Shown here piece after piece: positions 3,610 through 29,406 of a stretch of DNA of 64,000 nucleotides. The stretch lies in NCBI GenBank assembly GCA_965207065.1, contig OZ242260.1:2336001-2400000 (forward strand), given 5' to 3'. A model generated the notes under the pieces. That model was not told the origin of the DNA. It was given only the letters and a program-made list of their open reading frames with translations, and did no database searches. Both the position numbers and the translations under genes were made by a program. The DNA comes from a bacterium (lineage in GTDB: Bacteria > UBA8248). Numbering within the stretch: the stretch's first letter is position 1; each line of letters starts with the position of its first letter.

Positions 3610-3628
3610 TTCTGGACGTATTTGCGGG

Positions 3629-6263: not shown

Positions 6264-6290
6264 TTATTTTCGTATTATATTCGTATTCAT
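6264..6290 (-). repeat. Left copy of a 27-bp inverted repeat pair bracketing the tra region
   Basis: Reverse complement ATGAATACGAATATAATACGAAAATAA matches 29380-29406 at 25/27 positions. Confidence 0.75.
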
Positions 6291-6512
6291 GGATATCTTT
6301 CTTTCCGAGTTCAAGCGACAGCTTCTCCCCCGTACGGAGTCGCGGGGCTCCGCCTCACTCCCGTACATGCCGTTGCTGTGGAGGAAAATCACTTTTTTTG
6401 CCATATCCCTGCGCAGCCGTTCGCAATTGAGAGCGGGGTTGGCAAAAAATCGCAGGAAACTAGATATATTTAGTTATTTATAAGATAATATATATTCATA
6501 TATATTTATCGC

Positions 6513-7250
6513 ATGAAGACGTTCACTCATCACACACAGATTCCCCTGGACGACAAATTGAACCGCTGCGTTGCCGCGTGGTGCGCGCGCCACGGCGTGA
6601 GCACGAGATATCTCGGGAGGGCCGCGCTCGGAGATCCGGATTTCGTTGACGAACTGCGCCGGGGACGCTCCGTGGGGATGAAGACGGCGGACAGGGTGCT
6701 CGCCTTCATGGGGGTTCCGCCGCTGGGACCGGCCTTCAGGAGCGAGGTCGAGGCGTTTATGGCCTTGACGGGGACCAAGCCGCGGGTGCTTGGCGAGGAG
6801 GCCACGGGCAGTCCTTCCTTCGTGTGGAAACTGCGCCGCGGGTATTCGCCGCGGCTTGCGACGATTGAGCGGGTGCGCACTTGGATGGCTTCGCACGTGA
6901 GCGAAGAGGATCTGAGGGTTATCCGCGCCCGGGTGACGGATACAGCCGGTATGAAACCTTTCCAGCGGGCGGCGTCCCGCCCGCAGACTACAGGGGTCCC
7001 GACTGGCGGGACCGAGACAGAAGGGGAGATATGCATGAAAGGGAATGACAAGCATTACCTGAGCACGCGGGAAGCGGCGGAGTGGCTGGGCCTCTCGCCG
7101 AGGACGCTGGACCGCTACCGCGTGAGCGGGGCGGGGCCTGCGTTTCATCGTTTCGGTTCGCGGGTGCGCTACCTCCTCGCGGACCTGGAGGCGTGGGCCG
7201 CTGCGCGGAGGCGGACCTCCACCTCGGACGACGGAAGGAGGGTTGCGTGA
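6513..7250 (+). CDS. Two tandem Cro-like HTH domains plus a C-terminal AlpA/excisionase-type HTH (possible internal start at 7035)
   Basis: Repeats LGRAALGDPDFVDELRRGRS and LGEEATGSPSFVWKLRRGYS; C-terminal YLSTREAAEWLGLSPRTLDRYRVSGAGPAF...RVRY. Confidence 0.75.
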   Translation: MKTFTHHTQIPLDDKLNRCVAAWCARHGVSTRYLGRAALGDPDFVDELRRGRSVGMKTADRVLAFMGVPPLGPAFRSEVEAFMALTGTKPRVLGEEATGSPSFVWKLRRGYSPRLATIERVRTWMASHVSEEDLRVIRARVTDTAGMKPFQRAASRPQTTGVPTGGTETEGEICMKGNDKHYLSTREAAEWLGLSPRTLDRYRVSGAGPAFHRFGSRVRYLLADLEAWAAARRRTSTSDDGRRVA

Positions 7251-7546
7251 TGAGAACGTATTTCAGGGGAAAGCATCTGCTCGCGGCGCTCGTCTGGACG
7301 CTGTGTGAAGTGGAGGCTGTCTTCGCGACGACGGACACGACGTTCGCGGGTCCGCTCGGCACGGTGACGGACATCGTCTCGGGCACGGGCGGACAGCTGG
7401 CTGCCGCGCTCGCGGTGGGCGCCGCCCTGGTGGGTTCGGTGCTTCGCTTCAACGCGGGGCAGATCGCGGGCGCGGTGGGGGTGGGCATTGCGGCGGGCGC
7501 GGGCACGGGCGTCGTGACCGGCCTCGTGGGCACGGCGATCGTATGA
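7250..7546 (+). CDS. traA: Conjugative pilin
   Basis: Small hydrophobic protein with a leader and two TM segments, directly upstream of traL. Confidence 0.7.
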   Translation: MRTYFRGKHLLAALVWTLCEVEAVFATTDTTFAGPLGTVTDIVSGTGGQLAAALAVGAALVGSVLRFNAGQIAGAVGVGIAAGAGTGVVTGLVGTAIV

Positions 7547-7552
7547 GGAGGG

Positions 7553-7849
7553 GTGATGAACGATCAGGCGAAACACGCGATTCCCGCACGTCTGGACGAT
7601 CCCGAGAGGTGGCTGTTCTGGACGCTCGACGAGGCGGCGGCGCTCCTGGCGCCCGCGGTGCTGGGTCTGGCGGCGAACGCCTTCGTTACGGGTTTGATCG
7701 CGGGACTCGGCGGCTGGGCGCTTCTTCGCCGCGCGAAGCGGGGCGGCGGGGCGGATACGGCGCTGTGCGCCCTTTACTGGTTCCTGCCCGGCTTTGCGCT
7801 CGGGCTCAAGGCCGCGCCGCCGAGCCACCTGCGCCGCTTCACCGGATGA
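7553..7849 (+). CDS. traL: F-type T4SS TraL
   Basis: IPARLDDPERWLFWTLDE...LYWFLP...PPSHLRRFTG. Confidence 0.9.
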   Translation: MMNDQAKHAIPARLDDPERWLFWTLDEAAALLAPAVLGLAANAFVTGLIAGLGGWALLRRAKRGGGADTALCALYWFLPGFALGLKAAPPSHLRRFTG

Positions 7850-7859
7850 GGAGGTTTTC

Positions 7860-8417
7860 ATGAAACGCGACCTGCTGGAAGCAGAGCGACGTCGCGTCAG
7901 GGACGGCCGCGCCGCGCTGGCCGTGCTTCTCGGCCTCTCGCTCCTGGCCAACCTGGCGCTCGGCATCGGCCTCGCCTCGGTCGAGCGGACGACGGTGCTC
8001 GTGCCCGCCGTGGCGGGGCCGGCGTGGGAGGTAGGCGGCGGACGGGCGGGCGCGCGGTATCTCGAAGATGTGGGCCGCACCGTCGCCGTGACGCTCCTGA
8101 CCCTCACGCCCGAGAACGCAGGCCTCGTCCGTGAAACCGTGGCGCGGATGAGCCACCCTTCCGCGCGCGGCGCGATAGGCGCATGGGTGGCGGCGGAAGC
8201 GGGACGTATGAAGGGACGCGACCTATCGACGGCGTTCTACCCCGGAAGGGTCGAGGCGGACCCTGCGGGACTGACCGTCCTCGTGAGCGGGGAGCTCGCG
8301 ACCTGGATGGGAAGGGAACGCATATCGCGAGAGCGAAAGCGCTACCGGCTCTCCTTCCGCGTGGACGCGGGACGGATCGGCCTGCTCCGTTTCGAAGAGA
8401 TGGAGGATACGAAGTGA
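7860..8417 (+). CDS. traE: F-type T4SS TraE
   Basis: N-terminal TM, TVLVP, YLED...LLTLTPEN, STAFYP; operon position. Confidence 0.85.
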   Translation: MKRDLLEAERRRVRDGRAALAVLLGLSLLANLALGIGLASVERTTVLVPAVAGPAWEVGGGRAGARYLEDVGRTVAVTLLTLTPENAGLVRETVARMSHPSARGAIGAWVAAEAGRMKGRDLSTAFYPGRVEADPAGLTVLVSGELATWMGRERISRERKRYRLSFRVDAGRIGLLRFEEMEDTK

Positions 8418-9154
8418 AACGAACATCAATCATACGAATGACCCTGCCCGTACTGCTTATGCTCGCGGCATACCTTTTTGGACCGCTCCCGGCATCCGCG
8501 ATGCAGATACTCGAAGCCGCGGACCATGCCGAGCTCGAAGCGGTGGTTTCTGACCGAGCGGTGAGCCGGATCACGCTGGCGGGTGACCGGGTCGCGCGCG
8601 TGGTGCGTGGAGCGGAAGGCTTCGCGGTGGAGCACGACAAGGCGCGCGGGGACCTCTATCTCAGGCCTCTTAAGCGCGCAAGCGCAGACCCCGGGCAAGT
8701 GACGCTCTTCATCGGGACGGCGAAGGGTTTCACCTACAAACTCTCGCTCAGGACGGCCGCGCGGGATTCAGCGCAGATACTGATCCGAAACGCCGCCGCG
8801 ACCCCGCTGACGGAAGGCCCGGTAGTGGGAGATGGCCGCGTGGGCGCGCTCGTGGCGCTCGTGCGCGCCGTGGCGCGGCGCGAGGTTCCGCCCGGCTACG
8901 TGGTCGAGACGCCGCATGAATCACTGCGGCGGGACGGGCTTGCGCTGCTGGCAATCTGGCGCGGGCGGCGCTTCACGGCGCGCGTATACGAGGCGGATCC
9001 GAGTCCGGGGGATGACCCCGTAACCCTCGTGCAAGGCATGGCGCCCGGCGTCGCCGCCCTGTGGCGGGCTTCGCACGAAAGCGGCCCTTCGGGCGGACGG
9101 CTCGTCGTGGCGGTCCATGAAACCTACACGACGGAGGCGCGCGATGAGCGATAA
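8414..9154 (+). CDS. traK: F-type T4SS TraK secretin-like protein
   Basis: Signal peptide, SRITLAGDRV, GDLYLRP, TLFIGTAKGFTYKL; located between traE and traB. Confidence 0.8.
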   Translation: MKRTSIIRMTLPVLLMLAAYLFGPLPASAMQILEAADHAELEAVVSDRAVSRITLAGDRVARVVRGAEGFAVEHDKARGDLYLRPLKRASADPGQVTLFIGTAKGFTYKLSLRTAARDSAQILIRNAAATPLTEGPVVGDGRVGALVALVRAVARREVPPGYVVETPHESLRRDGLALLAIWRGRRFTARVYEADPSPGDDPVTLVQGMAPGVAALWRASHESGPSGGRLVVAVHETYTTEARDER

Positions 9155-10361
9155 GGAGAAGACACGGGTGGACCCGGAGAGCCGGAAGAACAGGAACCGG
9201 CAGCTTCTCCTGTTCTCGGTTCTTGTCGCGGTGGTCCTGTTCGCCCTCGCGCTTTGGCTCTCGGCGGGTGGGGGCGGCGCGCCTGCGCGGCTCCAGGGCG
9301 GCGTCCGCGCGGAACTCGCGGGCGCAAAGTCTGCGGAGACGGTCTGGATCAGGCGCTCCGAGTCCCGGATCGGGCAGATGGAGGCGCAGCTCAGGGACCT
9401 CGATACGAAGAACAAACGCATCGACGCGGAGAACGCGCGTCTTCGCGAGCGCCTCGTGAAGGACGCCGCGGACGGACGGCTGGTGATCGACCGACAGGCG
9501 GCTGCGATCGACCAGCTGCGCAGGAAGCTGGAAGCGCGGCCCATAGCGCCCCCTCAGGCCAAACAACCCGCCCGGGGCGCCGGAATGAAACGTCCCGCTC
9601 GGGGCGGAAAGACTCCCCCGATCCAGTCTGCGCCCATGATCCTCGAATTCGAAAAACCATCAAAGGGAGGTTCCGCTGCAGGCGCCCGGCCGCTTTCCTG
9701 GTGGCTGCCGGCGGGCGCCTATGCCGAGGCAATCGTGCTCGCGGGGGTTGACGCCTCGGTGGGCGTCTCCTCACAGGGCGACCCCCGGCCCGTGCTGCTG
9801 AGGCTCACGGGCAAGGCGCGGAGCGCGGCGGCGGAAGGCAAAGCGCTGGAGGCCGACGTCACGGGTTGTACGCTCACGGGAGCGGCCTACGGTGATCTGT
9901 CGTCCGAGAAAGTCTACGTGCGGCTTCGCACCATGACCTGCTCAGGGCCCGGTCCGGACACCGTGATCGAGACGAGAGTGACGGGCTTCGTGGCGGGGGG
10001 CGGCAAGGCGGGCGTACGGGGACCCGTGGTGAGCCGGGAGGGGGCGCTGGTCGAGAAGGCGTTCCTGGCCGGCCTGGTATCGGGCGCGGGCGAGACGGCG
10101 GCCAACATGCTCCAGGCGCCTTCCGGGACGGCGGGGGTCGAGAACGCGGCGAGTTTGAGCGATCTGGGACGCGCGGGCCTGGGGGCGGGCGCCGGGTCGG
10201 CCGGCCGCAAGGTGGCGGACTACCTGATCAGGCGCGCCGAGCAGTACCAGCCGGTGATCCAGCTGCAGACGGGAACGCGCGTCACGGTGGTGTTCATCGA
10301 GGGCGCGCACATCGACGGGCAGGACAACGCGAGAACCACAAACCGGAGGAGCAACAAATGA
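9144..10361 (+). CDS. traB: TraB (VirB10-like)
   Basis: TM plus coiled coil, LPAGAYAEAIVLAGVDA, GDLSSEKVYVR, YLIRRAEQYQPVI. Confidence 0.9.
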   Translation: MSDKEKTRVDPESRKNRNRQLLLFSVLVAVVLFALALWLSAGGGGAPARLQGGVRAELAGAKSAETVWIRRSESRIGQMEAQLRDLDTKNKRIDAENARLRERLVKDAADGRLVIDRQAAAIDQLRRKLEARPIAPPQAKQPARGAGMKRPARGGKTPPIQSAPMILEFEKPSKGGSAAGARPLSWWLPAGAYAEAIVLAGVDASVGVSSQGDPRPVLLRLTGKARSAAAEGKALEADVTGCTLTGAAYGDLSSEKVYVRLRTMTCSGPGPDTVIETRVTGFVAGGGKAGVRGPVVSREGALVEKAFLAGLVSGAGETAANMLQAPSGTAGVENAASLSDLGRAGLGAGAGSAGRKVADYLIRRAEQYQPVIQLQTGTRVTVVFIEGAHIDGQDNARTTNRRSNK

Positions 10362-10843
10362 AAATAATAAAACTTCATATGCGGGCGCTCGCGCCCCTCT
10401 TGCTGGCGGCGCTCCTCACGGGTTGCGCCGGAAGCGGCCACGTGGGCGAGTCCTGGCAGTGCCCCCTCGCGCAGGGAACGGCTTGCGCGAGCGTTTCAGA
10501 GGCGGACCCCGCCGTTCGTGCGCCGGGAGAGGCGCGCCAAACGGAACTCCCCGCTCCCGTTCGCTACGCGGCATCTGCCAGCTCCTCTGTCCTGAGCGGC
10601 TTCATCTCCTGGTTCGCGGAACTGTTCCGTCACGAGGAAGAAGACGCAGGCGCGGCTACGGCGGAGCCGCTGATCGTTCCACAGCCGGCGGAAGAGACTC
10701 CGGCCGAGCCGAATGAAAACCTCCGTACGAAGGAGCGGATCGCCCGGATATGGATAGCGCCCTACGTGGACGCACAGAACAACTATCACGAGGGTTATTG
10801 GGTACGCGCAGTCATAAAGCCCGCGCGCTGGAGGCTGCCGTGA
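10358..10843 (+). CDS. traV: TraV lipoprotein
   Basis: Lipobox LTGC, C-x6-C, RTKERIARIWIAPYVD. Confidence 0.9.
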   Translation: MKIIKLHMRALAPLLLAALLTGCAGSGHVGESWQCPLAQGTACASVSEADPAVRAPGEARQTELPAPVRYAASASSSVLSGFISWFAELFRHEEEDAGAATAEPLIVPQPAEETPAEPNENLRTKERIARIWIAPYVDAQNNYHEGYWVRAVIKPARWRLP

Positions 10844-13368
10844 TCGGGCGCTTAAAGGACATGTTCGGCGGCGCCGACGCGCTCGCGCCCCGCGCGCTCC
10901 CGGCCATGCCCGCGCCCCTGGTGGAGCTTCTCCCCTGGCGGGCCTGGGACGAGTCGGGGGAGTTCTACGTGAACGAGGGCGGTCTGGGCTTCGTCCTGGA
11001 AATCCCGCCCTTCGCGGGCGTGGACGAGGGGACGCTGGACGCGCTCGCGGGAACCTTGGCCGATTCCGCGCCCGAGCGCTCGGTGGTTCAGGTGATCCAC
11101 TGGGCGAGCCCGCGCTACGGGGCGGCGCTTGCGGGGTGGGCGGGGCCGAGGGAGACGGCGGGCGGTCTCCTGGCCGTGATGGCGAAGCGCAGGGAAGCGC
11201 TCCTGAGAGGCGCCGGCTGGCGTCCGCTCCACGCGGGCGGGCCGCCCTTTACGCTGAACGACTGCCGGGTATTCCTCGCGGCGAGCCTGCCGGGAAGGCC
11301 GGGGCCCGCGTCAGAGACCGCGCTCGGCGGCTTTCGGCGCGCACTCGAGGGCGCGCTGGCCTCGATCGGGACGTGGGCGCGGCGGACGGAGCCGGACGAA
11401 TTGTTGTCACTCGCCGCGGAACTGACGGCGCCCGAGGTCGAGGGCGCGCACGACGGGGGCCTCATGCGGCCCGAGAGGCGCTGGTCGCCGCGCGACCCGC
11501 TCCATCTGCAATGCGCCGCCCCCGGACGGGCGATGAGCGTCGCGCCTGCGGGCCTCCTCTTCCACCATCCGGATGGCGCCGACGTCGGCGTGCGCGTCCT
11601 CACGGCGCGCGCCTACCCCGAGGTATGGCCCGGCTGGCGGGGAAACGCCCTGATCGGTGATTTCTATCGCGACTTCTTACAACCCGGCGCGCCGGTACTG
11701 ACCGCGCTCACCGTGATGATGGGCGAGGCGGCGGACGGTGAGCGAGCGTTCCTGAAGTCCGCCCGCGCGACGCAGCAGGCCGGAACGGGAATCGCGCGCT
11801 ACCTGCCGGGACTGCCAGAGAAGGCGCGCGACTGGCGTTTCGTGACCGAACGTCTCAAGGAAGGCGAGCGCCTGGTACGTGCCTGTTACGCCATCTGCGT
11901 CTACGCGACACCGGAAGCGATGGATGAGGCTGAACAGGCGGTGCGCGCCATCTACCACGGACAGGGCTGGCGGCTGGGGGCGGAGCGCTACGCCCACCTC
12001 CCCGCCTGGCTCTCCTGCCTGCCCATGACGCCTGCCGGCGGACTCGACGCCGACCTCGCGCGCCTCGGCCGGATGAAGACGCTGCTCACTTCTTCGGTCG
12101 TCAATCTCGCGCCCGTGCACGGGGAGTGGCGCGGCCAGCGGCCGAATCCCGACGCTCCGCCCGCTCTCTTGCTCGTGGGAAGACGCGGCCAGCCCGCCCC
12201 CTGGTCCCCGTTCGCGAACGAGGCGGGAAACTACAACGTGGCCGTGACCGGGAAGTCGGGTTCGGGAAAATCCGTCCTGATGCAGGAACTCGTCGCAGGC
12301 ATCGCCGGCGCGGGAGGCGAGGCCGTCGTCATCGACGACGGGCGATCCTTCCAGCATACGGCCGAGGCGCTCGGCGGCGCCTTCATCGCCTTCGGCAAGG
12401 ACCCGGCGCGGCTGAACCCCTTCGCCATGATCGATAAGGAGACCGCGGCGCGCGACGGCGACTACCGGGAGGAGTGCTTCGCCATGCTGGCCTCGGTGGT
12501 CGGCCGGATGTGCCGGAGGCGCGGTCGGATCGACGACGTGGAAGCGGCTCTGATCGACGAGGCCATCGCACGCGCCTGGGAGGAGGCCGGAAACGATGCG
12601 GATTTAGGGTTAGTGCAGAAAAATCTCGAATCCGCAGGGGACAGGCGAGCGGCCGATATGGCGCTGGCGCTCGGTCCCTGGCGGCCGGGCGGCGCGATGG
12701 GGAGGCTCTTCGAGGGAGGCGGTACGCCCGCGCTCGACGCCGCGCTCACCGTGTTCGAACTCGCGGAGCTCAAGGGGCGCGGCGACCTTCAGGGCGTGGT
12801 CCTCATGCTCGTGGTGTTTCTCGCGACGCAGCGGATGTACCACGGGCCGAGGACGCGGCCCAAGGCCATCGTGATCGACGAGGCCTGGGATTTGCTCTCG
12901 GGCGAGGACAGCAAGGCGTTCCTCGAAGGCGCCGCAAGACGCGCTCGCAAATACCGGGGCGCGCTCGTGACGGGCACGCAGAGCGTGAACGACTACTACG
13001 CGAACCCCGCGGCCCGCGCGGCCTGGGACAACTCCGACTGGGTGATTTTTCTCGCGCAGAAGGACGAATCGGTCGAACTTTTAAAGCAGGAAAAACGCAT
13101 CCACTGCGACCCGGGGATGGAACGCGCGCTCAAGAGCCTGGCCACGGTGGACGGGCGCCATGCCGAACTCGTGCTCCACGGCCCCGACGGCTGGCGCGTC
13201 GCGCGGCTCGTGCTCGACCGGGTGTCGGGCGCGCTCTACTCCTCGCGTGGACCCGCCTTCGCAGCGATCGAGAGACTGAAAAGTGAAGGCCTCACGACGG
13301 AAGAAGCCGTACTGCGAATCGCGGATGAGGGTCTCCCGGAGGAGACGTCAGTTGAGGGCGCGCAATGA
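10840..13368 (+). CDS. traC: TraC (VirB4-like ATPase)
   Basis: NYNVAVTGKSGSGKS Walker A, IDEAWDLL Walker B, RRARKYRG. Confidence 0.92.
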   Translation: MIGRLKDMFGGADALAPRALPAMPAPLVELLPWRAWDESGEFYVNEGGLGFVLEIPPFAGVDEGTLDALAGTLADSAPERSVVQVIHWASPRYGAALAGWAGPRETAGGLLAVMAKRREALLRGAGWRPLHAGGPPFTLNDCRVFLAASLPGRPGPASETALGGFRRALEGALASIGTWARRTEPDELLSLAAELTAPEVEGAHDGGLMRPERRWSPRDPLHLQCAAPGRAMSVAPAGLLFHHPDGADVGVRVLTARAYPEVWPGWRGNALIGDFYRDFLQPGAPVLTALTVMMGEAADGERAFLKSARATQQAGTGIARYLPGLPEKARDWRFVTERLKEGERLVRACYAICVYATPEAMDEAEQAVRAIYHGQGWRLGAERYAHLPAWLSCLPMTPAGGLDADLARLGRMKTLLTSSVVNLAPVHGEWRGQRPNPDAPPALLLVGRRGQPAPWSPFANEAGNYNVAVTGKSGSGKSVLMQELVAGIAGAGGEAVVIDDGRSFQHTAEALGGAFIAFGKDPARLNPFAMIDKETAARDGDYREECFAMLASVVGRMCRRRGRIDDVEAALIDEAIARAWEEAGNDADLGLVQKNLESAGDRRAADMALALGPWRPGGAMGRLFEGGGTPALDAALTVFELAELKGRGDLQGVVLMLVVFLATQRMYHGPRTRPKAIVIDEAWDLLSGEDSKAFLEGAARRARKYRGALVTGTQSVNDYYANPAARAAWDNSDWVIFLAQKDESVELLKQEKRIHCDPGMERALKSLATVDGRHAELVLHGPDGWRVARLVLDRVSGALYSSRGPAFAAIERLKSEGLTTEEAVLRIADEGLPEETSVEGAQ

Positions 13369-13414
13369 GTCATCCATCGCAAGATTATCAGTATGAACAC
13401 GAAAAGGAGATCAC

Positions 13415-14143
13415 ATGAACGCGAAACGACGTGCGCAAACAAGCGCCGCAGAGGAGAGAACCCTCGCCTGGCCGGGGGACCCCGAACTGCTTGCGGCCGA
13501 CTCGGTCGACTTCGAGGCCCTGGCCCACGTGCTCGCCAACACCTGCAGAAGGGAGGGACGGGTGAGGCGCTATCACTCGATCGCGGCGCACGGGATCGCG
13601 ATGAGCGAGGCGATAGAGGACCTGGCCGCCACTGCGGGAGGCGACGTGAGGGAGGCGGCGCTCCTGGCCCTGCTTCATGAGGCCGCCGTCGCCTGGTTGG
13701 GGTCCGGCGGCGCCCCCTCGCGTCGCTCGACGCCGCGGCTGAGACGGCTCGGTGAAAAAACGGACCGCGCGGTGCGCGAGGCGGCCGGACTCGGTGCAAA
13801 GCCGGCTTCAGGGCCTGCGGAACTCGTTCGCTTCGTGGCCCGGATGGCCGATGCGGCCGAGGCGCGCGACGTACCGGGAGCGGGTGCGAATGCATCCCCG
13901 CTCCTCACCTTCCCGCCGATTGAGAGAAGGATCAGGTCCCTTGGTCCGGAGCGCGCGGCGAGACTATGGCTCGAGCGCCTGAATGTGCTCAGGGAAAAGC
14001 CCGGCGCGGCTGCAAGCATTTCCGCTCCCTATCCCGGGGTATCCGGCAATAACCGTGAGGAGGAAGTACATGCCACGCAAGCGCAAACGCCGAAAGAGAA
14101 AGATGGGACGCCCCGGGCGGGAGGTTCGCGCGATGCGGCCTGA
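13415..14143 (+). CDS. HD-superfamily (YfbR/phage phosphohydrolase-like) protein with degenerate HE motif
   Basis: ALAHVLANTCR...YHSIAAH...ALLHEAAVAWLG...AEARDV. Confidence 0.65.
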   Translation: MNAKRRAQTSAAEERTLAWPGDPELLAADSVDFEALAHVLANTCRREGRVRRYHSIAAHGIAMSEAIEDLAATAGGDVREAALLALLHEAAVAWLGSGGAPSRRSTPRLRRLGEKTDRAVREAAGLGAKPASGPAELVRFVARMADAAEARDVPGAGANASPLLTFPPIERRIRSLGPERAARLWLERLNVLREKPGAAASISAPYPGVSGNNREEEVHATQAQTPKEKDGTPRAGGSRDAA

Positions 14144-14381
14144 TCGCAGGCAGCACTCGGAGCCTGAGCGCTTCATCCGGGTCTATGAGGACACCGACAA
14201 CGTGTTCCGCGCCGCGATCGCTTCGGGCGTGCTCTCGGCCGACGCAGGTGAGCGCCTCTACGCGGGCCGGTTCCACTACATGTTCCATGACGAGGAGGGA
14301 ACGGCGTGGTTCAGGCGTCATGACGCCGCGGAGTGGGTCGAGATGGATGATGCGCTTTGCGCGGCTGGGGACCGGCCATGA
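14070..14381 (+). CDS. Small hypothetical protein
   Basis: GAGGAGG RBS before ATG 14070; stop overlaps the next ATG (ATGA); alternative start at 14133. Confidence 0.5.
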   Translation: MPRKRKRRKRKMGRPGREVRAMRPDRRQHSEPERFIRVYEDTDNVFRAAIASGVLSADAGERLYAGRFHYMFHDEEGTAWFRRHDAAEWVEMDDALCAAGDRP

Positions 14382-14764
14382 ACGGGGTTTCCGGGTTCGC
14401 GGCCGCTCTCCTGCTCGCGGCTGGCGTCGCCGCCGCCGTCTCGGCCGGGACAGTGAGGTTTGCCCCCGGAAAACCCCATCGTATCGCGAGCGTTCGTCTG
14501 TCGAGCCTCACGGCGGACTACGTGACGAGGTCGCTGCGCGAGGGCGGGGATTCGGAGAAGGCCCTGGCCGCCGCCCGCGAGTGGGGAGCAAGACTGGAGA
14601 GGGCGCTCGCGAAAGTGGCGGCACGGCGTGGCGTCGTGCTGCTCACCGCGGGCGCCGTCGCCGCGGGCGCGGAGGATTTGACGACCGAGGTCGAGGCGGC
14701 GATGGCGGAACTCGCGTCGAGGACATCACCGAACAGGGAGAAGAATAATGCTGATGATCGATGA
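14378..14764 (+). CDS. trbI: TrbI-like F-type pilus protein
   Basis: N-terminal TM, VVLLTAGAVAAGAEDLT; position after traC. Confidence 0.75.
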   Translation: MNGVSGFAAALLLAAGVAAAVSAGTVRFAPGKPHRIASVRLSSLTADYVTRSLREGGDSEKALAAAREWGARLERALAKVAARRGVVLLTAGAVAAGAEDLTTEVEAAMAELASRTSPNREKNNADDR

Positions 14765-16956: not shown

Positions 16957-16969
16957 TTGGGTGGATAGG

Positions 16970-18753: not shown

Positions 18754-18762
18754 GGAATCGAC

Positions 18763-20950: not shown

Positions 20951-20971
20951 TGACGCAGAAAGAGACAACCC

Positions 20972-23899
20972 ATGTATGAAATCTTCACCCTGGGAGGCGG
21001 GACCTACCTGGTCGACCTCCTGAACGCCGTTGCCGCCATCACGGGCGGGGGCGCCTTCGTCATGCTGGCGCAGATCGCGGGGATCACGGGACTCGCCTGG
21101 GCGCTCTTCCGCACCGCTTTCGGCGGGTCGTGGAAGGACAACGCCAAATGGTTGCTGCTCTTCGTCTGTGTGTGGGGCGCGCTGGTGGTCCCGAAGGGAA
21201 CGGTGCGCGTGGTGGACAGGCTGGACCCCGCGCTCGCGCCGGCGGTCGTTGCGAACGTGCCGCTGGGTCTCGCGCTGTTCGCCTCGCTCACGAGCCGGGT
21301 GGGAGACGGGTTAACGCGCCTCACCGAACAGGCCTTCTCGCTTCCGAACGATTTGGCTTACCGCCGACACGGGCTCATCTTCGGCGCGAGGCTCGCCGCC
21401 GCAACGACCCGGATGGAGGTGACCGACGCCGTCTTTGCCCGGAATCTCAGGGCCTACGCCCGGCAGTGCGTGTTCCACGCCCTGCTTTTGGGCCACATAT
21501 CGGCGGACGACCTGCGCGAGAGCACGGACCTCTGGGCGCTCGTCACGGCTTCGGGATCGCCCTCCGCCGGCGCCTCGCCCGCGCGCATGGTGGAATACGT
21601 CACCCGTGGCGCGGCCTCGGGGACGGGCGCCACGACGCTGGACCGCGCGATTGTGACCTGCTCGGCCGCCGCCTCTCGCCTTGACGCCCTCTGGGGGGCG
21701 GAGATAACGCGCGCCTCGGGCATATTCGGGATGAGGCTCTTCCCGGGGGTCGCGAGCGAGGCGCTCGCGCGGGCGGAACTCATGGCGGCGCTTCCCGCCG
21801 CGCACGATTTCCTGATCGGGGCGTCGCGCTCAGCCGCCGAGGCGCTTCGCCAGCAGATGGTGCTGAACGCCGTACACGACGCGGGCGAGCAGTGGAGCGC
21901 CGAAGCCGGAAATGCCGCGGCGCTGAGGTCCTATACCGAGGCCCGCGCCCAGGCCCAGACCGTATCGGCCTACCGGGCGATCGGAAGACAGGCGGAGACC
22001 TGGGTGCCGATGCTGCGGATCGTCTTCGAGTGCCTCTACATCGGCGCGTTCCCGATGGCGGTCCTGTTGATGCTCACCCCTGCGGGCGGCGCGATATTCC
22101 GCTCCTACTTCTCGGGTCTGGTGTGGCTGCAGAGCTGGGGTCCGCTCTACGCGATCCTGCACCGGGTCGCGATGGGAGAAGCCGCGCAGCGCATGAGCGC
22201 GGCAGCGCTCATGCCGGGCGGGGACGTCGGCGTTTCGCTCGTGGCCCAGGCGGGTATCCGGGCCGTGACTTCGGATGTGGCCGTGATGTCGGGCTACCTC
22301 TCGATGTCGGTGCCCTTTCTCGCCGCGGCCTTGGCCTACGGTGTCGGCCGCGCGACCTCGCTCGCCACTTCGGTCCTCTCGGTCGGACAGGACGCGGCCT
22401 CGTCCGCTGCCCAGGAAGGCACAACGGGCAACATTTCATTGGGAAACACGAGCGCGGACACGCACCGCTTCGCCTCCGTCGAGGGTCACCAGGTCAGGAC
22501 CTCCGCGCAGGTGGACACAGGGAGGTACACCGGCTTCGCTCCCGGCGGCGCGGCCTACACCGTGACCGGCGAGGGCGCCGCCGTGATGGACGCGAGTTCC
22601 GCCACTAGCCGGGTGCCTGCGGCGGGCGTCAGGCTCTCGGAATCCCTGGCGCAGAGCCATGAAGTCCGTGCAGGCGCAGCGGTCGAGCAGGCCCGTCACT
22701 TCTCGGCCGAGGCGGCCGCAGCCAGGACGGCCGCCGCGACGGATTCCGCCGCCATGGTCGAGCGGTTCTCTCATGACGTGCGAAGCGGCGTCACCCACGC
22801 GCGGGGTGTCACGGAGAGCGAGAACGCGGGCGCGCAGCGTCTGGAATCCCATATCGAGAAACTCTCACAGGCCGGCGGGATCACGAAGGATCAAGCCGCA
22901 AGTCTCGCGAGCGAGGCCAGGGTGGGAGGCGGATTCGATTTCATTGTCAGGATAGGCGCTAACGGCTCTGCGAGCTGGCGCGGACAGACGTTCTCGCGCG
23001 AGGCCTGGAACCGGATGACGGACTACGCGGGACAAAGCGGATTATTGGACCTCTGGTCGCGCGTGGCGGACGCTTCCAAGCGCTACGCGAGCGCAACCGG
23101 CGAGAGCGAGATGAAGAGCCTGGAGGAGAGTATGGGCGCCAATCTCACGCGCATGCGGCGCTTCAGCGAGCAGGAGGCGGTGAGCAGGCGCGAGGCTGAA
23201 AACTGGAGCACGCAGGCGGCCGAGGTGCGCGCGAACGCGCGATCGATAGAGAGCGAACTCGGACAGCCCTTCTTCGCGTGGCTGACGACGCGGGTGGGCG
23301 CGGACGGGCGCGAGATAGGCGCCGCGGGCGCGATGCGCCTGGCATCTCCTCAGACGACCGAAGACGCGGAAGTGCTGCGCGCCCATGCCGCCGCCTTCAT
23401 CGCCGAGCGTTATCCGGCGGGCGGAGGGGTTGAACCGGCGCCGGTTCGAGCAGAATTCGATCATGCGAGGGCAGGATTGCGCGAAGCGGACGGGACGGAC
23501 GCGGCGTGGAATGACTGGTCGAGGTCGGTGCGCGAAAGGGCGAGCGGCGAAGGCGCGCCCAGGCCGGGCGGCGCCGGTGAACGGGCCGCGCGCGGACGCG
23601 CGGAGATCGAGACCGAACTCGACATCCGCGAAGCTGGCCGGGCGGCCCGCAGGGGAGTGACGGGGGAGCGAATCGGGGAGGGGCGTCCTGAAATCGCCGC
23701 GGAGACCAAGAAGCCCTTCTCGGAACACGTCGTGGAGGACTTGCCCGTCGTCGGCGATTGGCTGGGGGGCAAACTCTACGGCACCGCGCGGAACGCGGCG
23801 CCCGGGGGGGATGAGAAGAAAGCCGTGTCCGAACGGGAGAGGAAGAAAGAAAGCGGAGGCGGGAGCGGGTTTTCAGGCGATCAGGTGATGGGGCCGTGA
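20972..23899 (+). CDS. traG: TraG (F-type)
   Basis: YEIFTLGGG...LNAVAA, VANVPLGLA, WLQSWGPLYAILH; long soluble C-terminus. Confidence 0.92.
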   Translation: MYEIFTLGGGTYLVDLLNAVAAITGGGAFVMLAQIAGITGLAWALFRTAFGGSWKDNAKWLLLFVCVWGALVVPKGTVRVVDRLDPALAPAVVANVPLGLALFASLTSRVGDGLTRLTEQAFSLPNDLAYRRHGLIFGARLAAATTRMEVTDAVFARNLRAYARQCVFHALLLGHISADDLRESTDLWALVTASGSPSAGASPARMVEYVTRGAASGTGATTLDRAIVTCSAAASRLDALWGAEITRASGIFGMRLFPGVASEALARAELMAALPAAHDFLIGASRSAAEALRQQMVLNAVHDAGEQWSAEAGNAAALRSYTEARAQAQTVSAYRAIGRQAETWVPMLRIVFECLYIGAFPMAVLLMLTPAGGAIFRSYFSGLVWLQSWGPLYAILHRVAMGEAAQRMSAAALMPGGDVGVSLVAQAGIRAVTSDVAVMSGYLSMSVPFLAAALAYGVGRATSLATSVLSVGQDAASSAAQEGTTGNISLGNTSADTHRFASVEGHQVRTSAQVDTGRYTGFAPGGAAYTVTGEGAAVMDASSATSRVPAAGVRLSESLAQSHEVRAGAAVEQARHFSAEAAAARTAAATDSAAMVERFSHDVRSGVTHARGVTESENAGAQRLESHIEKLSQAGGITKDQAASLASEARVGGGFDFIVRIGANGSASWRGQTFSREAWNRMTDYAGQSGLLDLWSRVADASKRYASATGESEMKSLEESMGANLTRMRRFSEQEAVSRREAENWSTQAAEVRANARSIESELGQPFFAWLTTRVGADGREIGAAGAMRLASPQTTEDAEVLRAHAAAFIAERYPAGGGVEPAPVRAEFDHARAGLREADGTDAAWNDWSRSVRERASGEGAPRPGGAGERAARGRAEIETELDIREAGRAARRGVTGERIGEGRPEIAAETKKPFSEHVVEDLPVVGDWLGGKLYGTARNAAPGGDEKKAVSERERKKESGGGSGFSGDQVMGP

Positions 23900-24228
23900 C
23901 CGAAGGGACCATCGTCATCGTAAAGCCCTCCCTCCTCGTAATCACGGCGCCAGGCGTAACGGCCCGTCCGCGTCGACCAGTCGAAGTGCTCGTCGTCTCT
24001 TTCGGGGAGCGTGTAGCCGGTGAAGACGGAACGATCCCCCTGGAACGCCCGCCACAGGGCGCCGGCAAGCGCCGTGAGAAAACTCCAGATCACGGCCCAG
24101 AACCAGGCGGCGAACAGCAGGCTCGCGCCGCTCCCGGACGCGAGGACGCAGAGGGTGAAGAGAAAAGCGATTGCGGGTCCGGCGAGGACCAGACAATGGG
24201 CCAAAGCGGATGGTTTCTGGTTTTTCAT
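23881..24228 (-). CDS. Small membrane protein, candidate entry-exclusion factor
   Basis: Two TM helices and an acidic tail; GAGGAG RBS; convergent with and overlapping the traG 3' end. Confidence 0.55.
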   Translation of the reverse strand: MKNQKPSALAHCLVLAGPAIAFLFTLCVLASGSGASLLFAAWFWAVIWSFLTALAGALWRAFQGDRSVFTGYTLPERDDEHFDWSTRTGRYAWRRDYEEGGLYDDDGPFGHGPIT

Positions 24229-24393
24229 GGATGGCTCCTCATGAATTGTAATTCAACGGAAGTCGGGGCCACGGACTCTCCCGGGACCCCGCTCTTTCGC
24301 CCCCGCCCCACCCTCCTCGACCTCCGTGCGGCGCATCGCGGGCCGGAACCACCCGAAACACTTTTGCTCATAAAACCTGAACGGGAGGACAAT

Positions 24394-26334
24394 ATGACCA
24401 TCGGAAACGCCACCCTTCGCGGCGGCCAGACGCTGCTTCACGACGCCCGCATGTGGGGCCAACTCGCGCGCTGGGGCGTCGTGGGACTCGTACTCGCCAT
24501 CGTCCTGACCCCTGCGGTGAGTCTCTTCACGACGACGAGCGCGCACGAATGGCGCGTCGTGGGACTCGGGACACTCGCCGAGGCCAAGCTCGCCATCGGC
24601 TATTCTCCCGATTCGGGCCAGGTCTACGAGTGGGGAGAAGGCGTGCAGGTGATCGAATCCATCTCCCTGATCGCGTCCGACCCCAGGATCGAGCGCATCA
24701 GGAGGCGGTTTCTCGCTACCATTCATACGAAAGCGTGGCTGGGCCTCTGGCTGGGGCTCTCGTGCGTGGCCGCATTCATCGTCACCTTCTGGCTGCTGGG
24801 CAGGCGCATGGCGCGCGCGAGGCGGATCCGGGGCGCCGAGATGACCACGGCGCAGGCGCTCGCAAGACGCGTTACGCCTTTCTTCTCCCGCCTGACGGGA
24901 GGATTCTTCCCGACCGCGCGCGGGTCCACGCCCCGTATCGCGGGTGTCCCCTGGCCCGAGCGGGCAGAAACCCAGCACACCATCGTCTCGGGCACCACGG
25001 GTTCGGGGAAGACCGTCCTGATCTCGGACCTGGTATCCCAGATTCGCGAACGGGGGGAGCGCTGCATCCTCTACGACAAGATGGGAAGCTACACGCGTGC
25101 GTTCTTCGACCCCGCCCGCGACGTGCTCATGAATCCCCTGGACGCCCGGGCGCCGCGGTGGTCGCCCTTCCTGGAAGCCAGGACGCCCAGGGACTTCGAC
25201 ACGATGGCGGCGGCGCTCATCCCCCAGCAGAAGGACACGGTGGACCCCTTCTGGGTGACGGCCGCGCGGCAGCTGTTCGCGAACGGCGCGGGCGTCCTCT
25301 GGAAGCGCGGCGTGACGGAGAACAGCGTACTCGTAAAACACCTGCTCAAGACGGAGTTGACTGCCCTCGCAGAGGCCATGGAGGGCACGGTGGCGCAGTC
25401 CATCGTGGACCCCGAAAACCCCAAGACCGCGCTCTCGGTGCGCGCCATGCTGACCGCGCACCTGGGCGCGCTCGAGTGCCTGCCCGACTCAGGAAAACCG
25501 TTTTCGATAAGGGAGTGGGTGGAGCGGGAGGACGAGGCGGGCTTCCTGTTCCTGACCTCGCGCGGGGACCAGCATGCGAGCCTCCGGGGCCTCATATCGA
25601 CCTGGCTCGAGATCGCCGTGAACGCGCTCTTATCCCTCGCGCAGGACGATGGGCGCAGGATTTGGATCGTGCTCGATGAGCTTCCCACCCTCCACCAGGT
25701 TCCGAGCTTACAACCCGGTCTCGCCGAATCGCGCCAGTTCGGGGGGTGTTTCGTACTGGGGATCCAGGTGATCTCGGCGCTCCGCGATCTCTACGGGCGA
25801 AACGGCGCCGAGACCGTGTCGGGTCTCTGCGGCACCCGGGTGGTGCTGGCAGCGCCCGACCAGGAGACGGCGCGCTGGTCGGCAGAGAGCCTGGGGAGAG
25901 GCGAGGTCACCGAATACGCGGAGGGTCTCAGCTACGGCGCCAGCGCGATGCGCGACGGTGTATCACTCACCCAGCGCCGGGAGATGCGGCCACTGGCGCT
26001 GCCTTCCGAGATCATGCGCCTCGAAAACCTCGACGGCTACCTCAAGTTCCCGGGTCCCTGGCCCGTGGCGCAAATCCGGCTCGACTATGTGAAAAGGCCC
26101 AAGGCGGCCGAGAGTTTCATCCCGAGAGAGGGTGTGACGCTTCCCGATCCGAAGGAAGACGCGGGAACCGAAGCGCCGGAAACCGTGAACGCTCCCTCCG
26201 ATGAGGAGACTGCTCCGTCCGGTGGTCACGAAACAGACCCTGAAAGCGGCTCTGCTCCTCCCCTGCCGGAAAACAGCGGAAACGACACGCCCGGCTCCGG
26301 GGAGCCGCAAGGCTATCGCCTGAGGAGCTACTGA
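24394..26334 (+). CDS. traD: Type IV coupling protein TraD
   Basis: GGAGG RBS before ATG 24394; two TMs; SGTTGSGKT; LDELPTL; SRQFGGCFVLGIQ. Confidence 0.92.
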   Translation: MTIGNATLRGGQTLLHDARMWGQLARWGVVGLVLAIVLTPAVSLFTTTSAHEWRVVGLGTLAEAKLAIGYSPDSGQVYEWGEGVQVIESISLIASDPRIERIRRRFLATIHTKAWLGLWLGLSCVAAFIVTFWLLGRRMARARRIRGAEMTTAQALARRVTPFFSRLTGGFFPTARGSTPRIAGVPWPERAETQHTIVSGTTGSGKTVLISDLVSQIRERGERCILYDKMGSYTRAFFDPARDVLMNPLDARAPRWSPFLEARTPRDFDTMAAALIPQQKDTVDPFWVTAARQLFANGAGVLWKRGVTENSVLVKHLLKTELTALAEAMEGTVAQSIVDPENPKTALSVRAMLTAHLGALECLPDSGKPFSIREWVEREDEAGFLFLTSRGDQHASLRGLISTWLEIAVNALLSLAQDDGRRIWIVLDELPTLHQVPSLQPGLAESRQFGGCFVLGIQVISALRDLYGRNGAETVSGLCGTRVVLAAPDQETARWSAESLGRGEVTEYAEGLSYGASAMRDGVSLTQRREMRPLALPSEIMRLENLDGYLKFPGPWPVAQIRLDYVKRPKAAESFIPREGVTLPDPKEDAGTEAPETVNAPSDEETAPSGGHETDPESGSAPPLPENSGNDTPGSGEPQGYRLRSY

Positions 26335-26335
26335 A

Positions 26336-29176
26336 ATGGTCGCGTCGATCGGCGCCGTAGCCGCGCCCGCGCAGTGTGTCTCCTACTTCGAGCGCGACGA
26401 CTACTACACGAAGGAAGACCCGAACCACCGGGAGGCGAGCGCCTGGCGCGGCAGGGGCGCCGAGGACCTGGGGCTGTCGGGTCCGGTCGACCCCGATACC
26501 CTCCGCTCCGTGCTTGATGGCGTGGTCCCCGACGGTTCGGGGCGCAGGCTCGGGCGCCCGGGAAAGGACGGGTCGTTCCACCACCGTCCCGGCCGCGACC
26601 TCACCCTCTCGGCCCCAAAGTCCGTCTCGCTGCTGGCCTACCTGGGCGGCGATGCGCGCGCGATTTGGGCCCACCAGGTCGCCGTGGCGCGCACCCTCGA
26701 CTGGGTCGAGCGAAACGTCGCCGAAACCAGGATGAGCGACCCTAAGACAGGACAGATTGTCCGCGTGGGGGACCAGAAGAGCGTGGTCGCGACCTTCCGG
26801 CACGATACGTCGCGCAACCTGGACCCCCTGCTCCACACGCACGCGGTAATCGCCAACATGGTCCGGGGGACGGACGGCAAGTGGAGGACCATGTCCAACG
26901 AAAAACTCTATGCGAGCAAGATGCTGATCGGCGCCCACTACCGGGCCGAACTCGCCCGGGGTCTCGAAAACTTCGGCTACCGGGTCGAGAAGACCCACGC
27001 CGACGGGTGCTTCGAGGTCGAGGGCGTCCCCAGGGACGTGATCGAGGCGTTCTCGACCAGGCGGGCGGAGATCGAGAAGGCGATGGAAGAACGCGGACTC
27101 GGCAAGACGTCTGAGAACCAGCGCGCCGCCCAGCGGGCCGCGCTCATGACGCGGGACCCCAAGCGGGAAGCCGACAAGGGGACGCTCATGGCTGTATGGG
27201 AGAAGCAGGCCGCTGATCTCGGCTTCGACGCCGTCGCCCTCAAGGCGCAGGCGATGGAGAGGAGGGCCGTATCCCGCGACGCCGGCCGGAGCGCGGCGGA
27301 CGTCGAACCCGCCCGCGAGGCCGTGGAATGGGCCGTCGCGCATCTCTCGGAACGCGAGGCCGTCTTCGACCGCGCCGCTCTGCTCGCGGGCGCGCTCGCC
27401 TGGCGGCCGGGCGCGGTCTCGATGGCGAATGCTGTGCGCGAGGTGGAGAGACTCGAAAAAACAGGCGTCCTGCACGCAGCGGACCTGCCCGGAGTGAAGG
27501 ACATGATCACGACGGAGAAGGCCGCGGCGGCGGAGCGCGAGACCATCGCCCTGGTGGAGGCAGGACGCGGACGGGGCGCGCCCGCCATGCGCGGCCGCGC
27601 CGTTGACAAGGCGCTCAGAAACGGACCGCTGACCCATGGCCAGCGCGAGGCCGTCAAGCTGATCCTCACCGACTCCGACCGCGTCGTCGGCGTGCAGGGC
27701 TACGCGGGCGCCGGCAAGACGAAGATGTTAAAGCGCGCCCGCGCGCTCCTCGAGAAGCGCGGCTACGAGGTCCGGGGCCTGGCGCCCTCGGCCTCGGCCG
27801 CAAGGACCCTCGAAGCCGAGGCCGGGATCGGGAGCGAGACGCTCCAGCGTTTCCTCACGCGATATACAGACGTCGCCCGGGGCAGTCTCACGAGGAAAGC
27901 CCAAAAACACTTGCGCGCGGGCTACGCGAAGACCGCTCTCGTGGTGGACGAGGGTTCCCTCGCATCGACGCGCGAGATGCGCGAGCTCCTGCGTATCGCG
28001 CAGACCTTGCGCCTGCCCCGGGTCGTGCTCGTGGGCGACGCGAAACAATTAGACGCCGTCGACGCCGGCAAACCCTTCGCGCAGCTGCAGGCCGCGGGCA
28101 TGAAGACGGCGACCATGAACGAGATCATGCGCCAGCGCGACCCCGATCTCAAAGCCGCCGTAGAGGCCACGCTCGCGGGCGACGTGAAGCGCGCCTTCGA
28201 GAAACTGGGTTCCAACGTAGCCGAGGTGAAACCCGACAACCTCGCGGGCGCCGCCGCCGCGCGATGGCTTGCGCTCCCGCAAGAGGCGCGGGCGAACGCC
28301 GGACTCATGGCGCCGAGCCACGCGATCCGCGAGAAGATCAACGCCATCGTCCGCGAGCGCCTGGTCAGGGACGGAGTCGTCCACGGCCCGGCCTTCCTCA
28401 CGCAGCGCCTCGTCTCGCGCGGCTACACCAACCCCGAGAAATCGCTCGCCGCGAACTACGCGCCAGGCGACGTGGTCGCCTTCCATCGCCCCTACAAGCG
28501 CATCGGCGTCGAGAAGGGAGACGAGTTGCGCGTGGCGGGCGTCGACCACGCGAACGCCGCGGTCATCCTTGAAGGCAGGCGTGGAGAGGAAGTCCGCTGG
28601 GAGCCCGGCCGTCTCGCGGCGCGTACCGGCGGTGTTGAGGTCTACAAGGTCGAGCATATGGAACTGCGCCAGGGCGACAAGGTCCGCTGGACCCGGAACG
28701 ATCCGGACCTCGGTCTCATGAACAGCCAGGCCGCCGAAGTGACGGACGTCAGGGGCGGGCGCGTCACCTTCCGCATCGAGGACGGGCGCGTCCTGGACAT
28801 GACGAGCGCCGATCCCCAGCTTCGCCACGTCGACCGCGCATGGGCCTCGACCGTCCATGCCTTCCAGGGCAGAACGGTCGATACCGTCATCGCCGCCATG
28901 GAAGCCAACCACCCCGAGCTCACCAACCAGAAGACGCTCTACGTCGAGATCAGCCGCGCCCGGGACCGGGCGGAACTCGTGACGGATGACGCAAGAGCGC
29001 TGCGCGAGCGGATCGAAGCCGCGACGGGGGAGCGCATCGCGGCGCTCGAGGCGATCGGAGCGGGCAAGGCGGAGAGCATCGGGGCCGAGAAGCCGAACGA
29101 GGCGACGCAGGCAATCGAGCGGCGGTCGCCGGCGATGGAGAAGACCCGATCGGATCGAGGGATGGAGATGCCGTAG
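26336..29176 (+). CDS. traI: MOB-F (TrwC/TraI) relaxase-helicase
   Basis: SYFERDDYY, DLTLSAPKSVS, HDTSRNLDPLLHTH (HUH), QGYAGAGKT, VDEGSL, YVEISRAR. Confidence 0.95.
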   Translation: MVASIGAVAAPAQCVSYFERDDYYTKEDPNHREASAWRGRGAEDLGLSGPVDPDTLRSVLDGVVPDGSGRRLGRPGKDGSFHHRPGRDLTLSAPKSVSLLAYLGGDARAIWAHQVAVARTLDWVERNVAETRMSDPKTGQIVRVGDQKSVVATFRHDTSRNLDPLLHTHAVIANMVRGTDGKWRTMSNEKLYASKMLIGAHYRAELARGLENFGYRVEKTHADGCFEVEGVPRDVIEAFSTRRAEIEKAMEERGLGKTSENQRAAQRAALMTRDPKREADKGTLMAVWEKQAADLGFDAVALKAQAMERRAVSRDAGRSAADVEPAREAVEWAVAHLSEREAVFDRAALLAGALAWRPGAVSMANAVREVERLEKTGVLHAADLPGVKDMITTEKAAAAERETIALVEAGRGRGAPAMRGRAVDKALRNGPLTHGQREAVKLILTDSDRVVGVQGYAGAGKTKMLKRARALLEKRGYEVRGLAPSASAARTLEAEAGIGSETLQRFLTRYTDVARGSLTRKAQKHLRAGYAKTALVVDEGSLASTREMRELLRIAQTLRLPRVVLVGDAKQLDAVDAGKPFAQLQAAGMKTATMNEIMRQRDPDLKAAVEATLAGDVKRAFEKLGSNVAEVKPDNLAGAAAARWLALPQEARANAGLMAPSHAIREKINAIVRERLVRDGVVHGPAFLTQRLVSRGYTNPEKSLAANYAPGDVVAFHRPYKRIGVEKGDELRVAGVDHANAAVILEGRRGEEVRWEPGRLAARTGGVEVYKVEHMELRQGDKVRWTRNDPDLGLMNSQAAEVTDVRGGRVTFRIEDGRVLDMTSADPQLRHVDRAWASTVHAFQGRTVDTVIAAMEANHPELTNQKTLYVEISRARDRAELVTDDARALRERIEAATGERIAALEAIGAGKAESIGAEKPNEATQAIERRSPAMEKTRSDRGMEMP

Positions 29177-29379
29177 AATCACGACCGGGTTTCATCGGCG
29201 CCCGACAATCGGAGTTTCACCCCGTCGAAATGTCCAGCCGCGCCGTTCACGGAGAGGAACATCTTCGGCCTCGCTTCGAAGGCCTGTCCGAGCGCGTCCC
29301 TGCCGAAGCGCGTCGTGCTCAGCCCGTGGCGCGACCCGGGTTTCCGTTGTCCGTCCCGGTGTGTCGCTCGATCTTCTTT

Positions 29380-29406
29380 ATGGATACGCATATAATACGA
29401 AAATAA
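29380..29406 (+). repeat. Right copy of the 27-bp inverted repeat pair
   Basis: ATGGATACGCATATAATACGAAAATAA; contains TATAAT facing the downstream ORF. Confidence 0.75.

Follow-up and report, generated by a model that had tools for sequence, protein, structure and literature searches.

Inverted arms around the transfer genes of an F-type integrative and conjugative element as probable copies of a lineage-wide candidate SOS-type operator

Two inverted arms around an F-type transfer block

The window analysed here is a 64,000-nt stretch of contig OZ242260.1 (positions 2,336,001 to 2,400,000) from a bacterium of the GTDB lineage UBA8248. It carries an integrative and conjugative element (ICE) of the F-type (MPF-F), with type IV secretion system genes, a coupling protein, a relaxase and an integrase in one island, and its GC content falls at about 35.3 kb, past the integrases (Table 1). 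Two 27-bp sequences in inverted orientation, termed the left and right arms, bracket the transfer block, which opens with an HTH_17 gene formerly described as cro-like (here ORF245a) and continues with the F-type set to TraI, just as a preliminary description of this DNA had it. The same description proposed that the block is an invertible module, phase-variable or flipped in the past, with one of the integrases as the invertase. We find instead that the arms are very probably not inversion sites but two independent copies of a chromosomal operator for a transcription factor, one that is spread through the host lineage. Related ICEs are referred to by labels coined in this analysis: Type A has the order ParB(-), ORF245(+)-tra, and Type B the order cI(-), ORF245(+)-tra.

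The sequences of the arms are exactly those given previously: they are identical at 25 of 27 positions (93%), the longest perfect identity read from the sequence being 17 nt, and a 23-nt arm pattern with up to 3 mismatches recovered both arms and nothing else in the window (expectation 0.00 from 100 shuffles). Each arm is a head-to-tail direct repeat with the 11-bp period that had been noted before, 12/16 and 10/16 positions repeating; dyad symmetry, likewise tested, extends to only 12 of 27 positions and is thus absent. The outward-facing TATAAT reported for both arms is present, but a simple sigma-70 scan finds a -35 box for it in neither, while it calls two promoters immediately before ORF245a. 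The promoter-like sites there (6461-6489 and 6477-6506) end 7 nt before the ORF245a ATG, suggesting that this mRNA is leaderless or has a very short leader, and the region around them aligns to a Type B switch with a score of 60, against a shuffle maximum of 24. A heptamer, TGTCGCT, had also been listed as a shared element on the inner side of the arms; it is not kept at the right arm of the sister ICE in genome G003, and for this reason we take it as a coincidence. Small open reading frames (ORFs) ending inside the arms (46 aa and 58 aa, '...IIRK') were rejected as genes because they show no conservation in relatives. A second inverted match nearby (6586-6632 and 29287-29333; 47 nt, 79%) proved to be protein-coding similarity between the N-terminus of ORF245a and a short minus-strand frame inside the right arm (10/16 residues, E = 5e-4), so that the similarity of the arms reaches into a gene fragment.

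The left arm is upstream of the genes on both of its sides, at 390 nt from the ParB-like operon (-) and at 223 nt from ORF245a (+). The leader that joins it to ORF245a varies: indels of 16-20 nt distinguish the window, G001 and G002, sequencing run X22 has a 16-nt deletion at 6293, and the Type A ICE of G003 (L026) has a tandem duplication of ~33 nt at ~9790-9850. ORF245a itself combines two N-terminal repeats with a C-terminal HTH_17/excisionase-type domain. It is directly followed by a small ORF (7253-7546) with a signal-like N-terminus and a Gly/Ala-rich hydrophobic C-terminus, which resembles an F-type pilin (TraA), though a Pfam search gave no match. On the other side of the block, the cI-like repressor has the motifs GNSMEP and VVKK and an AAG stretch, compatible with predicted autocleavage, and the palindrome upstream of it is a candidate operator for cI itself. 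Outside the ICE the window has repeat-rich regions (43787-48008, 44840-45077 and 53641-53768) with two ~300-nt direct repeats, 87-89% identical and 2.19 kb apart, and several copies of a 28-30-nt palindromic 'CGTCATTCCGGCGAAAGCCGGAATCCA' element.

Table 1. Features of the ICE and its arms in the window
Feature	Position	Strand	Remarks
HATPase_c protein	1837-3546	-	same operon (1837..5872) as the ParB_N protein
ParB_N-domain protein	3629-5872	-	operon 1837..5872, left of the left arm; Type A ICEs only
Left arm	6264..6290	-	19-bp core 6266-6284; conserved in 5/6 Type A ICEs
ORF245a promoter region	6382..6512	+	homologous to the ORF245-proximal part of Type B switches
ORF245a	6513..7250	+	245 aa; full-length match to relatives
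F-type conjugation genes	7553..29176	+	TraL-like, TraE, TraK, TraB/TrbI, TraV, TraC, S26 peptidase, TraW, TraU, TrbC, TraN, TraF, TraH, TraG, TraD, TrwC-type TraI relaxase-helicase
ORF245b' relic	29287..29381	-	first ~41 codons of a Type B ORF245 gene; right half of the second inverted match
Right arm	29380..29406	+	core 29386-29404; part of a displaced Type B cI/ORF245b switch
Small Mrr_N-domain gene	29478..29831	+	cassette between right arm and cI palindrome; absent from the G003 Type A ICE and Type B switches
Perfect palindrome TAGGATATATCCTA	29839..29852		75 nt upstream of cI; also in Type B switches of G033 and G017
cI-like repressor	29927..30622	+	HTH_31 + Peptidase_S24
RecQ-family helicase	30722..32791	+	accompanies cI in Type B ICEs
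Two tandem tyrosine integrases	32899..35246	-	Arm-DNA-binding domains (P4-type); same place and orientation in four Type A ICEs without right arm

Dispersal of the motif and orientation of the transfer block

The arms were compared with 51 genomes of the phylum, using the backwards-read pattern or the reversed genome as control. In the 4.48-Mb genome to which the window belongs, the 23-nt pattern has 5 matches, namely the arms and three other places (control 0), and the 19-mer core with up to 2 mismatches has 7 copies. At this stringency at least one match is found in 35 of the 51 genomes (0/51 for the control), among them 21 of the 22 other genomes of the genus; hence, the repeats are not specific to the boundaries of a switch. 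A position weight matrix (PWM) built from 36 distinct sites gives 12 hits in the own genome above the best score on the reversed genome, and in an alignment of 40 sites every position of the 19-bp core carries 1.4-2.3 bits of information, whereas the flanks carry hardly any. The motif is an ACGAA-N6-ACGAA direct repeat whose AT-rich core resembles a -10 box. The internal 11-bp repeat and the flat flanks fit a dimeric binder, and the motif recurs upstream of genes and is conserved at orthologous sites with diverging flanks, as is expected of an operator. Given that the cores of the left and right arms match the genome-wide consensus ACGAATATAATACGAAAAT at 19/19 and 18/19 positions, respectively, the arms resemble each other no more than any two copies would. 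Two near-identical copies of another mobile element in the own genome (G000:C1 39293 and 4456733; L014 and L018) also carry the motif, there ~260 nt from a TrwC relaxase gene and preceded by a conserved GC-rich stretch, 'ggggatttcccgcc...gctccc'; this element recurs in sister genomes (G002 L048, G003 L049 and G028 L075).

Site-specific invertible switches, such as fimS, Hin/Gin and the R64 shufflon, have repeats that are private to the switch and carry a recombinase core. If the transfer block were of this kind, one tyrosine integrase would recombine the 27-bp arms and flip the 23-kb segment, so that ORF245-tra toggles next to cI. As in those switches, inverted repeats do flank the segment here and recombinase genes are nearby, the two tyrosine recombinase genes lying 3.5 kb away; unlike them, the ICE has dispersed operator copies as repeats, which offer neither a dyad-symmetric core nor a perfect identity beyond 17 nt, around a segment as large as 23 kb for which no second orientation was seen. 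The latter point was followed through relatives and contigs. A species-genome scan gave 14 loci, and a search of the 51 phylum genomes found ORF245 homologues in 15 of them, at which 30 loci were examined: 6 are Type A, 11 are Type B and 13 have neither neighbour within 1.5 kb. All six Type A ICEs share one tra orientation, ParB(-), ORF245(+). In four of the six (G001, G002, G034 and G038) traI is directly followed by the same two integrases, Int1 and Int2, and both the cI module and the right arm are missing; among Type A ICEs the right arm is confined to the window and G003. Contigs of runs X19 and X20, which derive from one sample, possibly the source (1473 nt each, 5649-7121, 0 differences), cross the left arm in the reference orientation, as does, unflipped, a diverged 694-nt contig of run X22 from a second sample (5822-6521); run X21 has no contig across 6166-6299 and is uninformative. 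The contig comparison drew on runs X19-X22, the word shares of runs X1-X18 being small. No joint was found at the left arm, and no loose end at 6264-6291 among the loose ends listed. To be set against our reading is that a rare inverted subpopulation would be invisible in contigs. On this balance we give a phase-variable module next to no chance.

The ORF245 family is wider than the ICEs: its genes are multi-copy in several genomes (14 matches in G028, 13 in G029, which is equal to G002, 8 in G005, 7 in G038, 5 in G007 and 4 in the own genome, for example at 3197210 and 1196102). Many of these are ~55% identical and lie in 276-aa frames without tra, cI or ParB within 1.5 kb, and such lone copies look like a separate small mobile element family.

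The preliminary description had pointed out that repressors of the cI kind usually stand head-to-head with a cro-like gene, and the relatives bear this out: cI is divergent from ORF245 at 11 of the 30 loci and at four loci from sponge metagenome-assembled genomes (MAGs; L027/28/29/32), of which arrangement the window keeps only a decayed partner stub. Within the genus, Type B ICEs (those of G033 and G017, and a second ICE in G003) hold the motif between cI and ORF245b, at 5-6 nt from the ORF245b ATG; a TTGCAA box is followed there, at a distance of 17 nt, by a TATATA hexamer, which predicts a leaderless message. Outside the genus, the divergent pair of Type B ICEs, whether in other genera or in sponge MAGs of other phyla, lacks this motif. 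The palindrome TAGGATATATCCTA stands ~20 nt from the motif in Type B switches, and the Mrr_N cassette separates the two in the window. Across 960 nt of its right junction, the G003 Type A ICE (G003A) shares 97.6% identity with the Type B switch of the same genome. G003A and the window have one breakpoint in common, after about codon 41 of ORF245b, where the start of this gene abuts the 3' flank of traI in inverted orientation; the stub has an intact ATG in G003A, and in the window its ATG has become ATA and the frame is broken. Judged by these alignments, the right arm of the window is a displaced fragment of a cI/ORF245 switch with a decayed 41-codon stub.

This relic also bears on the suggestion that a Type B-like ancestor (cI beside ORF245-tra) was inverted once, leaving the arms as scars. 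The genus does contain ICEs in which cI and ORF245 diverge, and in the window the ORF245b stub adjoins cI, both of which would agree with such an event; however, the stub already stands divergent from cI in place, and no flip is needed to explain it. Moreover, no ParB/HATPase homologue turned up, beyond traI or elsewhere, in four Type B ICEs that were each mapped over 60 kb, and because they lack this operon Type A is not a flipped Type B: the two layouts are not interconverted by a flip. Four of the six Type A ICEs are without any cI module, and ORF245a, which has a promoter region of its own, shares no more than 57-58% identity with the g1 Type B ORF245b. A historical inversion is thus very improbable. 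We propose that the right copy of the operator came with a Type B switch fragment comprising ORF245b codons 1-41, the operator, the palindrome, cI and RecQ. The ancestor shared by the window ICE and the G003 ICE would have gained this fragment, inverted, at the 3' flank of traI, and the Mrr_N cassette would have split it later; upstream of ORF245a, the left arm and the ParB leader would take the place of the cI side. The inverted-repeat geometry would then be a by-product of modular recombination between co-resident ICEs and not a substrate of recombination. Region L124 of G033 has, at 5293-5547, a 265-nt fragment with 88% identity to the traI 3' end of the window; immediately to its right come an Int1/Int2 pair and then a Type B ICE. 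This order suggests that ICEs of both types pile up in tandem at one site and recombine with each other.

Genes beside the motif and its predicted reader

To the genes that carry the motif belong a Y-family polymerase of the dinB type, with its start codon 14 nt from the motif (own genome and G003), a umuD-like gene that is followed by a 434-aa ORF (G048), a radical-SAM + HhH protein (own genome, G001, G002, G025 and G036), a ComM-like Mg chelatase (own genome and G037), a SocA_Panacea gene (own genome and G002) and, with the widest occurrence listed here, the promoter of an alpha/beta hydrolase (own genome, G001, G003, G025, G028 and G032-G035); it also adjoins relaxase-bearing mobile elements. 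NCBIfam scores of the motif-adjacent repair genes fall below the curated cut-offs, and this includes the best match of the radical-SAM + HhH protein, TIGR03916, a UDG-linked repair protein. The motif precedes canonical SOS genes in the manner of a LexA box, namely the dinB-type and umuD-like genes, the radical-SAM/UDG-type cassette and the comM-like gene. Further, two motif-like blocks upstream of recA are conserved in 6/6 aligned genomes, and two TTCGT-N6-T(T/A)TGT sites, invariant in 4/4 genomes, lie just upstream of an operon in which lexA is preceded by a tRNA-U5-methyltransferase-family gene; these recA and lexA-operon sites are degenerate versions of the motif, and only their position and their conservation among close relatives give them weight.

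Beyond the hydrolase site, on the side away from the gene, 60-70 nt are strongly conserved (L006 5638-5730 and the orthologous L038, L043 and L067-L072). This stretch can form a hairpin followed by a T-run (z = -2.1), downstream of a promoter-like TTGCAT-17-TATATT arrangement, and it may be a small damage-regulated RNA; Rfam had no match for it, and an Rfam scan of the hydrolase site and both arms found no relevant family. Elsewhere at this locus (L006 6295-6677) a match to the cspA thermoregulator of Rfam lies upstream of an EF-G-like gene, at 57.4 bits against a gathering threshold of 78 (E = 1.8e-12).

OmpR/PhoB-type activators bind 11-bp direct repeats, and the motif could therefore be the target of such an activator or of an alternative sigma factor, or simply a conserved strong promoter core, with no repressor operator and no link to DNA damage. 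The TATAAT or TATATT embedded in the motif and the resemblance of its two 11-bp units to the pho-box architecture would suit this reading, as would the facts that the best-conserved member, the alpha/beta hydrolase, has no known role in repair and that several sites adjoin unrelated genes (a sugar transferase, a DNA methylase and an amine oxidase). It leaves aside, however, a gene set with dinB, a umuD-like gene, the radical-SAM/UDG cassette, a comM-like gene, recA and the lexA operon; moreover, repressors act at the -10 box and the start region, both of which the motif overlaps, and it serves genes in both orientations. We consider it improbable. Published SOS systems supply parallels: part of the text of PMC8565304 counts dinB and the UDG/COG4277 operon among the SOS genes of several phyla, and a part of PMC9578287 gives the Caulobacter SOS box as GTTCN7GTTC, which is a direct repeat. 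Because of these precedents, the adjoining gene set and the recA and lexA sites, the motif is most likely an SOS-type (LexA-type) operator of this lineage. A narrow literature search found no LexA motif described for this phylum, and the motif appears to be undescribed so far. The fuller proposal, that the 19-bp direct repeat is an undescribed SOS box read by LexA or by a second CI-type S24 repressor, and that the ICEs wired their transfer regulator and ParB-type operon to it, is a tentative one, to which we give slightly less than an even chance.

Several observations weigh against the operator and SOS assignments. With the PWM the sites at the lexA operon and recA score 17.0 and 15.4, which is no higher than control sequence can reach (maximum 20.1), and a strict CGAA-N7-CGAA pattern has no conserved match within 1.5 kb of lexA. 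Over 43 sites the promoters have an ambiguous direction, a -35 match of at least 4/6 being found at 7 in the TATAAT direction vs 15 in the opposite one, and the scan called no promoter at either arm. Finally, G026 and G027 keep LexA and are missing a conserved 244-aa XRE-S24 protein, and in them one half-site is altered at 4/4 orthologous hydrolase and radical-SAM sites, a pattern that could point to the XRE-S24 protein in place of LexA as the reader of the motif. The apparent co-loss of this protein and the sites is weakened by the form of the altered sites, TTCGT-N6-TTTGT, which equals the conserved variant at the lexA operon, and by the XRE-S24 gene having no motif upstream of it in a 4-genome alignment; the S24 fragment in G026 is not the XRE-S24 orthologue (E = 0.036).

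Whichever protein it may be, the predicted binder is chromosomal and not ICE-encoded, since G025, G036 and G037 keep the motif without an ORF245 homologue and with only two S24 proteins each. The alternative raised in the preliminary description, twin operators under one ICE regulator, therefore survives as to the twin operators, but not as to a regulator of the ICE. Two ICE-encoded candidates were rejected: cI because G001, G002, G025, G036 and G037 retain the motif without it, and ORF245 because its gene is missing in G025, G036 and G037. The helix-turn-helix regions of the ICE cI and the chromosomal XRE-S24 protein show no similarity to each other (E = 0.31). LexA (205 aa in the own genome) occurs in 46 of the 51 genomes and the XRE-S24 protein in 37. 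As the regulon looks like an SOS regulon, host LexA is the most likely binder, with an even chance of being the right one; some other factor is possible, if doubtful, and the second conserved chromosomal repressor, XRE-S24, is unlikely.

Proposed control of the element and its relation to known systems

The following scheme takes the dispersal and conservation of the motif, its gene neighbourhoods, the layouts of the relatives and the relic as its ground; that a repressor binds, that the signal is SOS and which way the promoters point are its predictions. A host SOS-type repressor would sit on both arms. At the left arm the motif is the sole AT-rich -10-like element upstream of the ParB-like operon, facing ORF245a; at the right arm it would head the Mrr_N-cI-RecQ unit, along with the now dead ORF245b' promoter. 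DNA damage would lift the repression, and cI, which has the usual S24 motifs, would add a second damage-sensitive layer. In the Type B ICEs of this genus the operator appears to overlap the core promoter of an apparently leaderless ORF245 message, and damage would thus de-repress the transfer regulator directly.

SCCmec ccrAB is one case of an SOS box on a mobile element. Others are integron integrase promoters and some phages, as stated in part of PMC9578287. The ICE would resemble such cases in having an operator of the host repressor in a promoter of the element, with damage as the predicted trigger; it differs in that the box is a new direct repeat with a putative binder, placed at a partition-type operon of the ICE; sister ICEs have it on the promoter of their transfer regulator. 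As far as SXT/R391 and its repressor SetR are covered in that part of PMC9578287, they share with the present system an F-type ICE with a lambda-CI-family S24 repressor, a coupling to SOS, which is predicted here, and, in the Type B sisters, a repressor gene divergent from the transfer-regulator operon. Unlike SXT/R391, no SetCD homologues were seen in our ICE, the partner gene is of the HTH_17 type and the relaxase of the TrwC type; four of the six Type A ICEs are without a repressor of their own, and the coupling appears to use the host operator as well. The alphaproteobacterial LexA box GTTCN7GTTC, known from Caulobacter (part of PMC9578287), likewise precedes SOS genes and is directly repeated with an 11-bp period, and TTC-N8-TTC is common to both boxes, but the half-site in our lineage is TTCGT and not GTTC, and the host belongs to another phylum. 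In Bacteroidetes a non-canonical LexA is described, in part of the text of PMC8565304, as a chromosomal repressor with a CI-type HTH and an S24 domain and a small regulon centred on dinB/UDG. Going by that description, the conserved 244-aa XRE-S24 protein could fill such a role here; in distinction from the Bacteroidetes case, a canonical LexA is also present, and the XRE-S24 gene lacks an upstream motif.

These findings remove the attractive model of a 23-kb phase-variable conjugation cassette and illustrate that inverted repeats around a block of genes can arise from recombination of co-resident elements with a common control region. They supply a candidate SOS operator for a phylum for which a narrow search found none in print, and replace the cassette with a testable model, in which DNA-damage signalling of the host gates conjugation in ICEs that are spread among uncultured hosts of several phyla. 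If this holds true, the wiring of the transfer regulator and the ParB-type operon to the host SOS box would mean that most of the ICEs (4/6 of Type A) need no repressor of their own, and the captured repressor module of a rival type may give the window ICE immunity against ICEs of that type.

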